From a virus: 55,983 nucleotides of DNA. Where the stretch lies: positions 1 through 55,983 of IMG/VR virus record IMGVR_UViG_3300016478_000096. One strand, written 5' to 3'. Below are positions 11,023 to 15,379 of the stretch, one piece after another; the first letter of the stretch is position 1; each line of letters starts with the position of its first letter. The notes beneath the pieces were generated by a model. It was not told the DNA's origin. It made no database searches and saw nothing but the letters and a program-made list of their open reading frames with translations. The position numbers and the translations under genes were made by a program.

Positions 11023-13713
11023 TCAGAAAGGCTCATCGGCTGTCTCCCAGTCATGGCGCAGGCGAATACCCGTGTAAAGGTTCAATCTTGTGCCAGAAGC
11101 ATCGTTGGCACCGGATGCAGGAACCCCGGAACCTGTGCCAACAGCCCTTGGTTGGCTGCGTTTGACGCCCGGGAAGGCGGCCGAAAGCTGCCGCCCAAAC
11201 GACACTTTGGTGCCTGCGTGATCGCGACCTTGGGCCTCGCACCACTTCTTCCAGGCCTTGAATAGGTCGTCTCGATCGACCTGGGCGTGCTCACTGATGA
11301 CGCACAGATCGTCCACAAAAGCCCGGATCGGACTGGTCTGATCGACCAAGTCGGAGGCCAGCTCGTCGGCTGATTTGGGCCGTTGGAAGTACCCGCGCTT
11401 GTTCAGACGAAGCAGGCCGTCAAGAGCCCACAGGACGATGCCAGGCAGCTCCTTGAGCAGTCGGTCGGTCAGGCCATGGTCCTCGCGGCCAAGGAAGCTC
11501 GTGTTGAACTTGAAGGGCAAAAACCGGTTGGCCAAGGCGGCCGAGGCATCCGAGAAGGCGGGCAGCTCGTTGGATGCCAGCACGAAGCGGATGGCCATCT
11601 TGCCGGACCAGGCGGTCATGTTCTTGCGGTCGATCGTGATCGTGTCCTCGCCCGAAATCCGCAGCAGGTTCTCGACGATCGGCTGCTGATCGGCACGGCC
11701 GGACAGGCGCGCGTCCGAAATCATGGCCAGGCGCTTGCCGATCAGGGGCTGCAGGCCAAACTGCGTGCCCAGGGACGCAAGGCTTGGGCTCACACGGTTG
11801 GCGTACCCCACCAAGGCCTCGAGGATGCGCAGGATTGTGCCCTTGCCGCAGCGCGGGGGGCCAATGAGCATGAACATCTTTTGTTGGCTGGTGTCGTCGG
11901 TCAGCAGGTAGCCGAACACCTCGGCCAGGGTGGAGATCGACTCGGGGTCGTCTGGCCAGAGGCTTTGCAGGAATTTCAGCCACTCGGTGGGCTCACTGGC
12001 GCTTGGGTCGTAGTCAAACGCCAGGGACGAGACGCAAAACAGACGGTCCGTTGAGGGCATGATGGTCCGCGTGGGGTGGTGCAGAAACCCGTTTTTGAAG
12101 GCCACGATCTCGTGGGCCGGAAAGTCGCCGGGCCTGGGGTCAATCCAAACCTGGGGCTCGGGCAGGTCGGCGTAGCAGACCGCGCGCAGGGCGTGGGCCA
12201 CATCGTTGACCGTGGAGGTCTTGGGGTTGAAGGCCACCGTCTCGCTGTCGCCCGTCTTGGGGTTGACCTTGAGGGTCAGGCACCCGGCCATGAAGTGGTA
12301 GAGGCGCTGGTCGATGTAGACCCGGTCCCGGGTGACGTAGCGCGTGGCGTCCCAGCTGTAGAACTCGCCGCGCCAGTGCAGGATGCGCCCAGCCTCGGGC
12401 AGGGTGTCGTGGAACAGGGTGGCGGTTTTCATCGGCGAGGATGAAAAAATCATCGGTTGGTCGTAGCTGTCGGGCGGAATGTCGTCCGGGCCGTCGTCGG
12501 GCGGGGGTGGGTGGCCGCCCGTGGGGTACGGATCCTCGAATGTGGGGGCGTCACCCTCGGAATATGGGGGCGAATATGGGGGCGAATATGGGGGCTGATT
12601 TTTACCCCCTTGGGAATCGATACCCCCGGGGGTGGGCAAACCGGTGGGCAAATCGTCCCAAGGCGCACCTTCGGGACCGTCGTCACCAGGCGGTGGGGTC
12701 TCGGGCTCATCTGGTGAGCCTGCCTTCATGATGCCGTCCTCGACTGCCGCCAAACCCTCGGCCAGGTGCAGGTCGTTGAAGTCGGTGCCGGTGCCCCGGT
12801 CCACAGACCACAGGGGGATGGCCACCAGGGCGTTGATCTCGCGCGCAGCCTTGCGGGCGTCGGTGATGCCCGGATTGCCTTTGGTTTGGAAATCGTCGTC
12901 GGCCGCGATCACGATTCGGGCGTCGGGCAGGGCCGCGCGGATCTTGCGGGCGACCGGCGCCAGGTTGCCGGAGTTGAAAGCGACCACCACGCAGTGCCCG
13001 GTGGCCATGCGGATGGAGCAGCATGTGGCCCAGCCCTCGGCGATGATGACCGTGCCCTGCTTGTCGGGCTTGCCCAGGACGGTGTAGGCGCCGCCGGACG
13101 GGGTGCCTTTCAAAAACAACTTTGTACCGTCGGACTTGATGCGCTGCAGGCCGACCAGGGCGCCGGGGCCGTGACGCATGGGGATGAGCAGCTCGTCGGC
13201 CAGCTGGCGGGCGCCCTCGGGCTCGATCAGCTTGCGTTGAACGTATGGGTGAACGGTTGGGGTGCTGGCCCGGGCCCACATCTCGGCGGCGCGTTGGGCG
13301 GCCAGCTCGCGCTCGATGCGCGCTGCGGCTTCTTCTTCGGCCATCCGGGCCTCGCGCTCAGCGATGCGACGGGCGCGTTCTTCGGGGTCGACCGGCTTGC
13401 GGTCCTGGGCGGTGGATTTGTAGCCGCCCTCTTTGGCCAGGGCGATCAGGGTGCCGATCGTGGCGCGGTTGGTGCCGCCGCCGGGCTTGCACGATTTCCA
13501 GACGTCGCGCGCGTCGCGGGGGTTGTAGTTCGAGCCCTGCTGGCTCCAGGCGTCCCAAGCATCGAAGGCTGGCTCGCCGAATTCTTCTTTGAGGATGAAG
13601 GCCATCTTCACCCAGGTTTCGCGGTCATCGACGCCGCGAACGAATGAGAGCATTCTCTCTGCTGTCTCAAGGGAAATGGGATCCCTTTGCCCTGTTGGTT
13701 TTTTTGTTGTCAT
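11023..13713 (-). CDS. Primase / SF3 replicative helicase (PriCT-2-like, Toprim and P4/D5-type helicase).
   Basis: DAWDAWSQQGSNY (PriCT-2-like), IIAEGWATCCS...IAADDD (Toprim) and Walker A GPPRCGKGT are present. A proline-rich linker carries a PPYS x3 repeat. Alternative starts are GTG 13776 and ATG 13653. Confidence 0.85.
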   Translation of the reverse strand: MTTKKPTGQRDPISLETAERMLSFVRGVDDRETWVKMAFILKEEFGEPAFDAWDAWSQQGSNYNPRDARDVWKSCKPGGGTNRATIGTLIALAKEGGYKSTAQDRKPVDPEERARRIAEREARMAEEEAAARIERELAAQRAAEMWARASTPTVHPYVQRKLIEPEGARQLADELLIPMRHGPGALVGLQRIKSDGTKLFLKGTPSGGAYTVLGKPDKQGTVIIAEGWATCCSIRMATGHCVVVAFNSGNLAPVARKIRAALPDARIVIAADDDFQTKGNPGITDARKAAREINALVAIPLWSVDRGTGTDFNDLHLAEGLAAVEDGIMKAGSPDEPETPPPGDDGPEGAPWDDLPTGLPTPGGIDSQGGKNQPPYSPPYSPPYSEGDAPTFEDPYPTGGHPPPPDDGPDDIPPDSYDQPMIFSSSPMKTATLFHDTLPEAGRILHWRGEFYSWDATRYVTRDRVYIDQRLYHFMAGCLTLKVNPKTGDSETVAFNPKTSTVNDVAHALRAVCYADLPEPQVWIDPRPGDFPAHEIVAFKNGFLHHPTRTIMPSTDRLFCVSSLAFDYDPSASEPTEWLKFLQSLWPDDPESISTLAEVFGYLLTDDTSQQKMFMLIGPPRCGKGTILRILEALVGYANRVSPSLASLGTQFGLQPLIGKRLAMISDARLSGRADQQPIVENLLRISGEDTITIDRKNMTAWSGKMAIRFVLASNELPAFSDASAALANRFLPFKFNTSFLGREDHGLTDRLLKELPGIVLWALDGLLRLNKRGYFQRPKSADELASDLVDQTSPIRAFVDDLCVISEHAQVDRDDLFKAWKKWCEAQGRDHAGTKVSFGRQLSAAFPGVKRSQPRAVGTGSGVPASGANDASGTRLNLYTGIRLRHDWETADEPF
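12560..12595. repeat. Perfect 12-bp tandem repeat x3 (gaatatgggggc) inside the primase linker, encoding (PPYS)3.
   Basis: Three identical units read directly at 12560-12571, 12572-12583 and 12584-12595. Confidence 0.9.
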
Positions 13714-13745
13714 ACCTGGCGTCTGTTGGCTGGCGACTGAAAAAG

Positions 13746-13808
13746 GTGGGGGCGACCCGCGCCAGGGTTGGGCCACCTCGGATAGCTAATCCGAGGCTTT
13801 GCCCCCAC
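13746..13808 (-). promoter_or_regulatory. Branched (three-way) RNA/DNA structure closed by an 8-bp G/C helix and followed by a U-run, in the primase leader.
   Basis: On the minus strand GUGGGGGC (13808-13801) pairs with GCCCCCAC (13753-13746), followed by CUUUUUC. Inside are the hairpin CCUCGGA/UCCGAGG (13796-13776) and the weaker GGCCC/GGGUC. Confidence 0.45.
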
Positions 13809-13812
13809 GAAC

Positions 13813-13843
13813 AGTATAAGGGTGTGTGCCGCGAAAAATGCAA
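13813..13843 (-). promoter_or_regulatory. Sigma70-like promoter candidate for the primase gene (TTGCAT-N19-TATACT).
   Basis: The -35 TTGCAT is the reverse complement of 13838-13843 and the -10 TATACT of 13813-13818, within an AT-rich patch. The 19-nt spacer is longer than optimal. Confidence 0.35.
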
Positions 13844-13860
13844 CAGTGAGGGAAATAAAT

Positions 13861-13877
13861 GTGCGGAAAACCCGCAC
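13861..13877 (-). terminator. Rho-independent terminator closing the region downstream of VRR-NUC.
   Basis: On the minus strand GTGCGG-GTTTT-CCGCAC is followed by ATTTATTT. Confidence 0.55.
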
Positions 13878-14047
13878 AGCCGTGGTAGCATGCTGCTCGT
13901 GGCCCAGCTGCTGATTGTTCAGTAATCATCCGTTGGGTCGCCGCCCTGGACACGCGGGCGTGAAAACGAAGTGGGGCCGGGTGGAAGCCCTGGAAATGGA
14001 GCCGCAATCCATGAACTGCGGTGGCGGGCGCAGAAAATCAGAGGCGC

Positions 14048-14072
14048 TGACACCCTGGAAAGACGGGGACAT
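14048..14072. repeat. Hairpin-forming 25-nt element, copy 2 (TGACACCCTGGAAAGACGGGGACAT).
   Basis: 22 of 25 positions match the copy at 14161-14184. CCCTG/CGGGG can pair, with one G-U. Confidence 0.75.
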
Positions 14073-14160
14073 ATTCAGAGCACGAGCGAAACATCGAGCG
14101 CGTCGAAGTGAAAGCAAGCCCGCAGGCGCCCACGGAGGGGATTCGTAGAAATACGCGATG

Positions 14161-14184
14161 TGACACCCCGGAGAGACGGGGCAT
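14161..14184. repeat. Hairpin-forming 24-nt element, copy 1 (TGACACCCCGGAGAGACGGGGCAT).
   Basis: CCCCG/CGGGG stem with a GAGAGA loop. It directly abuts the VRR-NUC stop codon. Confidence 0.75.
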
Positions 14185-14538
14185 TCACCCCGTCAGCACC
14201 CGCCTGGCATCCTCCACAGACCGCACGATCCCGGCCAGCGCGCCGCGCTTTTTCATGGCGGCGATGAAGGCCAGCTGCTCCTTGGTGACGCGGCCGGTGG
14301 CGGTCTTGACCTCCAGGTAAAACGCCCGGCAGTCGGCCAAGCGGTGGCCAAACAGGTCCGAAAAACCGACCGGAAGTCCCGAGCGCACCGGCCGCCCGTC
14401 CTTGGTGAAGAACAAGCCCACGTTGGCCCGGGCCACGAAGTGCCCGTCCTCCGAAAGCGCGACCATGATCTGGCGCATCAGATCTGCCTCGGTCATCGCT
14501 GGGGGTGGAGATTCCAGCCGAAATTTACCCCCAGTCAT
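14185..14538 (-). CDS. VRR-NUC domain nuclease (117 aa).
   Basis: GFSDLFGH...FYLEVKTATGRVTKEQLAFIAAMKKRG fits the D...ExK VRR-NUC pattern. ATG at 14538 overlaps the upstream stop. Confidence 0.8.
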   Translation of the reverse strand: MTGGKFRLESPPPAMTEADLMRQIMVALSEDGHFVARANVGLFFTKDGRPVRSGLPVGFSDLFGHRLADCRAFYLEVKTATGRVTKEQLAFIAAMKKRGALAGIVRSVEDARRVLTG

Positions 14539-14822
14539 CTCCTGCCATGCTCCCACACACGCCGCACTAGGGCCTCGAGCTCCAAGCAGGCCTTCTCGCC
14601 GCGCACCTGCAGGATCCCGCGCTTCGTGATTTTTCCCGCCTCCTCGCGGCCGCGCAGGTACTCGCGGCGGGCGACTTTGTCGGGGATGGCCAGGATGTGC
14701 CGGGCCTCGCACTCAGCGCGCCAAGCCTCGCACCAGGTGCACACGGTGGTGCCGTCGATCAGTTTCACAACCTGGTCAGTCTCCAGGCGGTTGCATCCGG
14801 CGCAATGTTCAGAGCGTTCCAT
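14535..14822 (-). CDS. Hypothetical zinc-ribbon protein (95 aa).
   Basis: Contains CAGC...CTWC cysteine pairs. ATG at 14822 overlaps the end of the HNH gene by 14 nt. Confidence 0.65.
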   Translation of the reverse strand: MERSEHCAGCNRLETDQVVKLIDGTTVCTWCEAWRAECEARHILAIPDKVARREYLRGREEAGKITKRGILQVRGEKACLELEALVRRVWEHGRR

Positions 14823-15306
14823 ACGGGTGTATCTCGCGTTTCTTTTTCAGGTAAGCAGCATGCGCATCCTCTGCGGTGTCGAAGCGGCCAAGATCATGCT
14901 GCTTTCCGTTGATGGTGATCCTTGCGCGAAACCTGTCTTTTTTAAAGTCAACACCAAGAAAACCAACTTTTGTGTTTTTGTTTGGTGTCCTGCGATTCTG
15001 ATGGTTTTGTGCATGCGTGACACACCGAAGATTTGCAATCCGATTGTCCAGCCCATCTCCGTTAATGTGATCAATCTTCCCGTCTGGCCAAACACCGTGT
15101 GTGTACGCCCAAGCCAGGCGGTGGGCCTTGTACTTTTTTCGGTTGATTTGAATGCGCCAATAACCACCTCCATCAGGAGCGCCCGCAACGGATCCGATTT
15201 TCACTCTAGACCCGGTGCTCACTTTGTAGATGAAGACACCAGTCTGGCTGTCGTAACTTAAAAGACGGTGAAGATCATCGACTGGAATAGAATTTGTCTT
15301 GCTCAT
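14809..15306 (-). CDS. HNH homing endonuclease with an AP2 DNA-binding domain.
   Basis: HINGDGLDNRIANLRCVTHAQNHQN (HNH) and GVDFKKDRFRARITINGKQHDLGRFDTAEDAHAAY (AP2). The gene is visibly AT-richer than its flanks. Confidence 0.85.
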   Translation of the reverse strand: MSKTNSIPVDDLHRLLSYDSQTGVFIYKVSTGSRVKIGSVAGAPDGGGYWRIQINRKKYKAHRLAWAYTHGVWPDGKIDHINGDGLDNRIANLRCVTHAQNHQNRRTPNKNTKVGFLGVDFKKDRFRARITINGKQHDLGRFDTAEDAHAAYLKKKREIHPYGTL

Positions 15307-15379
15307 GCTGCTGCGCCCCTATCGCGGTGGTTTGGGAAGTGACGCCTCGGTGTTAGTAGCACCGGGGCGTTGCACCATG

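Follow-up and report, generated by a model that had tools for sequence, protein, structure and literature searches.

We analyzed a 55,983-nt stretch of viral DNA, IMG/VR virus record IMGVR_UViG_3300016478_000096 from position 1 to 55,983 (hereafter the window), and focused on a gene-free block at 13878-14184 that carries two copies of a hairpin repeat. The block belongs to an intergenic stretch (13714-14184) that separates a VRR-NUC nuclease gene (14185 to ~14496), whose best PHROG matches are Holliday-junction resolvase and endonuclease families, from the gene for a P4-type primase-helicase (11023-13713). Both flanking genes are on the minus strand and the conserved element is on the plus strand. 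The left part of the stretch, 13714 to ~13860, holds the 5' untranslated region (UTR) of the primase gene and a promoter-like block. A first-pass annotation, made from the letters alone, had set the limits of the block accurately and had placed it "after VRR-NUC", which hides the minus-strand orientation of both flanking genes. It proposed the iterons of a replication origin, a terminator-bounded structured RNA of about 300 nt, or decoys of host CRISPR (clustered regularly interspaced short palindromic repeats) sequences. Our analysis indicates that the block is probably an accessory cassette, driven by its own plus-strand promoter, that encodes two small noncoding RNAs antisense to both flanking genes.

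The two long repeats are where the first-pass annotation had seen them. They are 21 nt in length (14048-14068 and 14161-14181) and 90% identical, with a 1-nt indel further 3', and a degenerate form of the 21-mer finds just these two sites in 56 kb (0 expected by chance, 100 shuffles). Each copy can indeed form a 5-bp hairpin. The layout is NGAC(A/G), a 5-bp stem closed by a G-C pair and a GARAGA loop, and the copies are followed by ACATATTC and CATTCACC.

A repeat-pattern search of IMG/VR found the hairpin in at least 120 uncultivated viral contigs, which range from ~30% to 70% G+C and have unrelated flanking sequences. Among the matches listed, all five stem pairs are intact in 120 of 121 that are non-redundant. 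From 91 of these 121 we built a covariance model, R1. Applied to the window, this model from other phages gives exactly two strong sites, both on the plus strand, and the next best site scores 13.6 bits. Across the family of related primase loci, R1 sites are confined to this slot and this strand. A weak match at 15333-15377 (plus; 13.6 bits, E = 0.11) has the same GUGACGCC flank and a 12-nt loop, and lies in the gap between an HNH endonuclease gene and a helicase gene.

The first-pass annotation had proposed testing for covariation across related loci, and the stem does covary. R1 finds 121 sites in 100 diverse loci, with 99.8% of cells paired, and four of the five stem pairs change on both sides. 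Compensatory cells number 71, compared to 18 in shuffles, and none of 500 shuffles reaches the observed value; some columns were fixed by the seed pattern, so that part of this signal reflects the way in which the matches were collected. R1 also recovered stems outside the seed pattern, namely GCUCG, ACUCG, AGCUG and GGAGG. Wobble in the stem is one-sided, with U·G occurring 17 times and C·A never. The GAC before the stem and GGA-AGAC across the loop are invariant. These data show that the element has the compensatory changes and strand-specific wobble of a structured RNA hairpin.

GenBank phages contain no DNA-level relative of the region by BLAST; IMG/VR and metagenomes hold many. One contig was binned with a Polaromonas metagenome-assembled genome, and the host is likely a member of the Comamonadaceae such as Polaromonas. 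We compared 35 distinct versions of the stretch, each taken from the stop codon of VRR-NUC up to the start of the primase gene. Nine are empty, with 140-196 nt that hold the primase UTR and promoter alone, and 26 bear arrays whose inserts bring the stretch to 272-1592 nt. In relative L001, whose VRR-NUC and primase N-terminus are 96% and 99% identical to those of the window at the amino acid level, 18 nt stand in place of 13878-14184. The first-pass annotation had held that absence from close relatives, along with a lack of any discrete transcript or origin activity, would refute its reading. The block is absent from some of them, which indicates an accessory cassette and not meaningless sequence. 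These data show that positions 13878-14184 are removable.

The arrays of relatives contain tRNA-Met, tRNA-Tyr and tRNA-Thr genes (for transfer RNAs, tRNAs; ARAGORN), all on the strand that corresponds to the window plus strand, and several further tRNA-like segments in these slots were missed by ARAGORN. The arrays finish in …ACCATCA, the last TCA being the VRR-NUC stop codon. Their non-tRNA modules are self-closing structured segments with visible compensatory changes (Table 1). One module family resembles the units of the window, and at least three module types that the window lacks match no Rfam family (for example in L006:3096-4001, L020:357-1027 and L023:2276-2831, minus strand of the locus). 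Because relatives hold tRNA genes and hairpin modules under the same promoter, the slot behaves as a hot spot for interchangeable small-RNA genes. This suggests that, at least in this phage family, the slot exchanges non-tRNA structured RNAs as well as tRNAs.

These comparisons bear on the origin reading, in which the repeats are iterons of an origin served by the adjacent P4-type primase-helicase. The block does adjoin that gene, and it packs two long repeats and three CCCTGGA copies into ~240 nt. The CCCTGGA copies exist (13944, 13988 and 14053) but do not behave as iterons, being neither enriched (10 found versus 8.6 expected window-wide) nor conserved (one of the three is kept in L251, the closest independent homologue). 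A search for at least three regularly spaced direct repeats kept together with the initiator found two long copies, and short copies that are not conserved. Moreover, the block is missing next to a nearly identical primase, as in L001, and is replaced by tRNA genes in other relatives. Phages whose replication modules are unrelated carry the hairpin as well, and so do lambdoid PL leaders. We therefore regard an origin as very unlikely.

The cassette begins with an extended -10 promoter. At the same position, the pattern TGnTAnnAT is present in 25 of the 26 array-bearing relatives and in none of the nine array-less ones, showing that the array promoter is conserved with the cassette and travels with it. 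Where tRNA-Met is the first module, its first base lies 7 nt after the -10 element, at the expected start site. By the same spacing, transcription in the window would start at ~13898. The palindrome AGCATGCT listed by the first-pass annotation overlaps this plus-strand -10 element. Hairpin copy 1 itself coincides with a sigma-70-like match at 14047-14075 (plus; CTGACA, 17 nt, CATATT; 9/12), the sole promoter-scan match in the region. We did not adopt the hairpin motif as a promoter, as copy 2 and most copies elsewhere are without a -10 element.

Downstream of the promoter the window cassette consists of two units, E1 and E2, and nothing else. A 96% identical homologue of E1 opens the array in L251/L252, where it ends in GGCACCCCGGAAAGACGGGG-ACCATCA and is followed by a long-hairpin module. 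On inspection of this alignment, substitutions in an E1 hairpin at 13911-13927 stay paired as G·U, which is valid on the plus strand alone. Homologues of E2 are present in L006/L092 (93% identical, ending GGGGACCATCA) and in L068. Inspection of the alignment with L006 shows two compensatory changes in a candidate E2 helix (14091-96/14156-61), and the 5' portion of E2, GCACGAGCG (14080-88), resembles by eye the GYRYGAG of other units.

The first-pass annotation had also pointed to small minus-strand open reading frames (ORFs) that start at the repeats, and had judged the region to be noncoding. Both observations hold. Two 48-codon ORFs begin at the CAT that follows each copy, and third-position G+C (GC3) is 0.54-0.69 in the region compared to 0.81-0.87 in the primase and VRR-NUC genes. 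In favor of the idea that these ORFs encode two 48-amino acid proteins translationally coupled to VRR-NUC, one ATG directly abuts the VRR-NUC stop (TGAATG) and a second follows the second repeat. The start codons are not kept, the first being AGG in L013 (98% identical) and the second TGG in L251, and the two N-termini differ by a frameshift though the DNA is 90% identical. GC3 of the ORFs is 0.63-0.69, neither has a PHROG match, and the region is absent in L001. Looking for a conserved ORF, coding composition and homologues, we found none of these, and GC3 is flat across frames. Small proteins are thus a highly improbable explanation.

The position of the hairpin relative to other RNAs is consistent across loci. 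Wherever a motif lies within 300 nt of an ARAGORN tRNA (17 cases), the two have the same orientation, and in six cases the motif is 3-7 nt upstream of the tRNA 5' end. In 55 of 136 cases, the hairpin is followed within 3 nt by the start of a stem, compared to 26-43 at control offsets. In many loci a long, near-perfect helix with a 2x2 internal loop directly follows the hairpin, and at its base RCYAWCACG is paired with CGUGWUGGY; after tRNAs, the helix includes the ACCA of the tRNA.

The hairpin is also present in cultured phages. Short-query BLAST and R1 identified carriers among phages of Xanthomonas, Vibrio, Bacillus, Escherichia, Salmonella and Klebsiella. In Xanthomonas phages FoX2 and FoX5 it occupies a 750-nt gene-poor stretch with tRNA-Leu that ends in a terminator, with more copies nearby. 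Further carriers are a group of ~60-kb Vibrio phages, Bacillus phage 031MP003, Microcystis phage Mvi-JY20 and Stenotrophomonas phages. Among 5426 complete E. coli genomes, 80 have a variant with the loop GAAGAGA, which is also found in enterobacterial temperate phages. Epsilon15-like phages (SPN1S and the E. coli EC2 prophage) have a promoter divergent from the portal operon, followed by a unit, a long hairpin, a tRNA and a terminator. In lambdoid mEp390, which carries two hairpin copies, and in the E. coli YJ4 prophage, the unit comes after a strong PL-type promoter and a CI-like repressor gene, and the first early-left gene lies beyond the hairpin.

This distribution speaks to the proposal that the hairpins mimic host CRISPR repeats and serve as RNA anti-CRISPR decoys. 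They are solitary and repeat-like, have G+C-rich 5-bp stems and lie in a phage accessory locus, with TGACACCCYGGARAGACGGGG as the candidate repeat-like sequence. However, the same sequence is found from 30% to 70% G+C in phages of unrelated hosts (Bacillus, Vibrio, Xanthomonas, Microcystis and Enterobacteriaceae), whose CRISPR repeats differ, and it is linked to tRNAs and promoters, not to anti-defence genes. We consider a decoy extremely unlikely.

Of the three original proposals, structured RNA comes closest, with the amendments that the RNA reads from the plus strand, that it has its own promoter instead of being bounded by the minus-strand terminator, and that there are two units and not one RNA of ~300 nt. 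We propose that the extended -10 promoter would drive a transcript, starting at ~13898, that would yield two noncoding RNAs of ~175 nt (E1) and ~105 nt (E2), each made of a poorly conserved body and a strongly conserved 3' hairpin. Because the hairpin is consistently at the 3' end of units, just before a tRNA 5' end or a long helix, it may be a 3'-terminal element for recognition and protection of discrete, processed RNAs. Processing points, namely a tRNA 5' end (an RNase P site) or a long RNase III-like hairpin, would then follow it immediately. The loop is presumably bound by a conserved host component; its invariance and spread across phyla imply such a partner, as does the lack of a linked phage protein despite this conservation. 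Host-takeover and counter-defence roles have been proposed for phage tRNAs, and these are candidate roles for the RNA bodies too. The repeat, the cassette and its strand, the conservation of the promoter, the covariation of the hairpin and its wide distribution are direct observations; transcription, processing, the binding partner and what the bodies do are predictions from sequence.

Several findings weigh against this reading. The first-pass annotation had called the block structure-dense, and thermodynamics does not bear this out, as E1 and E2 fold no better than shuffled sequences, with z-scores between -0.7 and -1.1 for the plus strand and between +0.2 and +0.5 for the minus strand. Homologues of the bodies are too few to assess covariation (E1 in L013 and L251/L252; E2 in L013, L006/L092 and L068), and RNAalifold on the E2 homologues was uninformative because diversity was too low. 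In L006 and L251 the hairpin is followed by an ACCA that the window copies lack, and these copies have no long hairpin module after them. Antisense targets of E1 and E2 within the window do not exceed 14 nt or chance expectation. We identified no array terminator for the plus-strand cassette: a scan for a G+C-rich hairpin with an immediate U-tract omits both window copies, and a plus-strand terminator-like site at 14237-49 inside VRR-NUC was rejected, being coding-constrained and equally kept in array-less relatives. No protein family is linked to the hairpin, with at most 14 of 123 loci sharing one. Finally, tolerance of G·T would also fit a hairpin in single-stranded DNA.

The last point leads to an explanation at the DNA level, in which the hairpin is a strand-specific single-stranded DNA structure at cassette borders, similar to repetitive extragenic palindromic (REP) elements, attC sites or T4 stem-loops, and acts in recombination or as a priming signal beside the primase gene. 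G·T without C·A is expected for DNA hairpins as well. The slot is also hypervariable, with a modular layout in which the same junction sequences reappear between modules, and the motif is at module ends. Such a signal would not be expected to show the strict co-orientation with tRNAs and fixed spacing to their 5' ends, nor to lie downstream of promoters and inside leaders. The array promoter moves with the cassette, the purine loop and flank are invariant across phyla, and no recombinase or transposase is associated nearby. We judge a DNA-level role distinctly unlikely. The closest known elements are REP and attC hairpins and the PeSL (promoter/stem-loop) cassettes of T4-type phages. These are likewise short repeated hairpins at the borders of exchangeable modules in hyperplastic regions, but they are lineage-specific, whereas conservation of the motif described here extends across phyla, its loop is invariant and its co-orientation with tRNAs is strict.

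A possible though still unlikely alternative is that the hairpin acts in cis in nascent RNA to control elongation, like put and nut and yet identical to neither, by resisting Rho-dependent or intrinsic termination. In the same unlikely scenario the units would be regulatory scaffolds, not stable trans-acting RNAs, and would allow untranslated arrays and long leaders to be transcribed in full. The lambdoid loci argue for it. In L268 and mEp390, the unit directly follows a CI-like repressor gene and a PL-type promoter (TTGACC-17-TACATT; TTGACA-18-TACATT), with the hairpin ~175 nt downstream. In lambda this position is taken by nutL, and in HK022 and HK639 by putL. No N-like gene is annotated in L268 or mEp390, where small divergent arginine-rich motif (ARM) proteins could have escaped annotation. 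Several AT-rich phages have the motif 10-70 nt after a promoter-like sequence or before a ribosome-binding site, and the downstream gene start is on the same strand in 17 cases versus divergent in eight. Untranslated arrays need to escape Rho, and if the partner were a conserved host component such as RNA polymerase, conservation across phyla could be accounted for with no linked phage protein.

Other observations count against elongation control. The plus strand of the window holds nothing for ~6 kb downstream of the cassette. A tRNA array usually has one copy of the hairpin, often in the middle; some hairpins are at the end of a unit, and a few copies in other phages have T-runs, which in L230 and L235 follow a stop codon. 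The leader terminators of mEp390 and L268 were seen by eye alone and were not listed by the scan. The hairpin also has no similarity in sequence or structure to put RNAs. The strongest version of this idea, that the hairpin and unit form a hitherto unrecognised, protein-independent signal to a universally conserved host machine, most plausibly the transcription elongation complex, is more doubtful. If true, the signal would add a third class to the processive antiterminator RNAs nut and put, and it would serve phages of many bacterial phyla in driving RNA polymerase across long early leaders and across tRNA and small-RNA arrays that are not translated.

We compared the hairpin with the two known classes directly. 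The putL and putR RNAs of HK022 and the putL-like RNA of HK639 are structured RNAs just downstream of PL in N-less lambdoid phages, as is the unit in mEp390 and L268. Their sequences (AACGGCGCG…AAACCAUGCGUCGG…) are unrelated to the hairpin and R1 is silent at put loci. What may suggest antitermination here is the positional analogy in lambdoid PL leaders. The boxB of lambda nut has a 5-bp stem and a purine-rich, G-A-rich loop and is promoter-proximal in early transcripts, like the hairpin. It differs in that its loop is a GNRA-like pentaloop instead of 6-7 nt (GARAGA or GAAGAGA). Furthermore, the hairpin has an invariant 5' GAC flank in place of boxA, no CGCTCTTA-type boxA beside the window copies and no identified N-like protein, and it occurs far outside lambdoid phages and beside tRNAs. 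In E. coli prophages (L268:3090-3125 and L267:3095-3120), the motif is followed by a long hairpin with GUGCUCUUUUUGUUGUGUGG as its 3' strand, which resembles the rrn boxA (UGCUCUUUAACAA) followed by a boxC-like GU-rich run; this could be coincidence or a link to Nus-factor antitermination.

Phage tRNA clusters may carry co-transcribed small stable RNAs, such as species 1 and 2 of T4 (rnaC/rnaD). The cassette-encoded RNAs that we favor would be similar in kind, as the T4 RNAs are also small non-tRNA RNAs that share an untranslated, promoter-driven array with tRNAs in a variable, dispensable region. There is no sequence relation between them, the signature hairpin spans many phage groups, and the window has no tRNA. 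GOLLD and ROOL RNAs are phage and prophage noncoding RNAs that often adjoin tRNA genes as well (PMC5737381), but they are 500-800 nt long with defined Rfam models, and here there is no Rfam match even at permissive settings. Theta ribozymes, which are minimal ribozymes like that of hepatitis delta virus (HDV), are short conserved RNAs that abut viral tRNA genes and have been proposed to mature tRNA ends (PMC10879173). They form a double pseudoknot with a cleavage site adjoining the tRNA, whereas the hairpin is a simple stem-loop mostly upstream of tRNAs. Permissive Rfam scans of the window and related loci returned no ribozyme family.

The first-pass annotation had suggested an Rfam scan. With Rfam 15 at the gathering threshold the window has no match, and at a permissive threshold chance matches alone (E > 3) appear in 13600-14300. 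No tRNA or transfer-messenger RNA was found in the window with ARAGORN or Rfam model RF00005. At both thresholds, no family covers the motif in 37 related loci, which gave tRNAs and one unrelated Betaproteobacteria-1 match alone. That match (RF02932, 95.6 bits; L133:2200-2316, plus) lies ~500 nt downstream of two hairpin units, on the same strand of an uncultivated phage contig. Two long units with the motif, taken from uncultivated phages, gave no BLAST matches, full-text literature searches with exact motif sequences returned chance primer matches alone, and the element is absent from the text of the theta-ribozyme, "ten thousand structured RNAs" and "224 motifs" papers. By inspection, we considered hammerhead, HDV-like and kink-turn/box C-D folds, mimicry of the sarcin-ricin and 23S A2058 regions, CsrA-binding GGA hairpins and a -35/-10 promoter, and none fitted consistently. 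We take the hairpin and its units to be undescribed in Rfam and the literature, where an anonymous entry in a large catalogue is possible. The kind of locus, a phage small-RNA/tRNA island, is already known, and the conserved hairpin appears to be uncharacterised.

Phage tRNA islands are increasingly viewed as counter-defence or host-takeover loci, and the present data suggest that, at least in this phage family, the same slots also swap non-tRNA structured RNAs. A single hairpin links such RNAs across phages of Proteobacteria, Firmicutes and Cyanobacteria and prophages of E. coli. Tractable carriers exist (mEp390, SPN1S, FoX2 and E. coli prophages), which makes function directly testable. For annotation, the locus argues for reading "gene-free" gaps on both strands and comparing relatives before calling origins or adding small ORFs.

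Table 1. Features of the slot in the window and module families in the arrays of its relatives.
Feature	Location	Strand	Description
Extended -10 promoter TGGTAGCAT	13883-13891	plus	TG 13883-84; -10 TAGCAT 13886-91
Unit E1	13898-14072	plus	Candidate ~175-nt small RNA; variable body and 3' signature hairpin
Signature hairpin, copy 1	14048-14068	plus	TGACA; stem 14053-57/14064-68 including a U·G pair; loop GAAAGA; repeat family D1; R1 37.4 bits, E = 3.5e-8
Unit E2	14076-14184	plus	Candidate ~105-nt small RNA; ends in signature hairpin
Signature hairpin, copy 2	14161-14181	plus	TGACA; stem 14166-70/14177-81; loop GAGAGA; R1 38.2 bits, E = 2.1e-8
VRR-NUC stop codon TGA	14185-14187	minus	Abuts cassette; is the TCA that closes relatives' arrays (…ACCATCA)
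Terminator-like hairpin and TTTATTT	13860-13878	minus	Left edge of cassette; simple scan match; function uncertain
AT block AAATAAAT	13853-13860	unstranded	Between plus-strand array promoter and minus-strand primase promoter-like block; kept in all relatives with or without array
Primase-helicase promoter-like block	13813-13843	minus	TTGCAT, 19 nt, TATACT; kept in all relatives including array-less; outside cassette
First-position module	relatives' arrays		TGACGCC…GGAGTTCAAGTAACTCGGCGAAAAC…GGCGTCA
Long hairpin module	relatives' arrays		NCYAWCACGCAUG-NNNN…NNNN-CAGCCGUGWUGGU; CACGCATG…CAGCCGTG; its base pairs with ACCA of preceding tRNA or unit
Third module family	relatives' arrays		Closed by GAUGGUG/CACCAUC (GATGGTG…CACCATC)
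Fourth module family	relatives' arrays		Units like E1 and E2 of the window

To the left of the cassette, the minus-strand terminator that the first-pass annotation had described passes a simple scan, but relatives do not preserve the stem. The T-tract of this terminator is the conserved AT block between the two divergent promoter-like elements, and this block may be an UP element. Within the primase 5' UTR (13746-13808, 13776-13796, minus), a perfect 8-bp hairpin, CCTCGGAT/ATCCGAGG, is nested in GTGGGGGC/GCCCCCAC. Relatives keep this hairpin with different stems (CCGGT…ACCGG and CCAGT…ACTGG), which suggests that the primase leader carries a conserved regulatory structure. Further into the gene, the linker between the primase and helicase domains (12440-12600, minus) contains a tandem PPYSPPYSPPYS repeat inside a proline-rich stretch. 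On the other side of the slot, an HNH endonuclease gene (14809-15306, minus; PHROG 99, E = 3e-67) lies between a small gene adjacent to VRR-NUC and a helicase gene. Its G+C content is 0.43-0.55 compared to ~0.66 around it, and it looks like a homing-endonuclease insertion.

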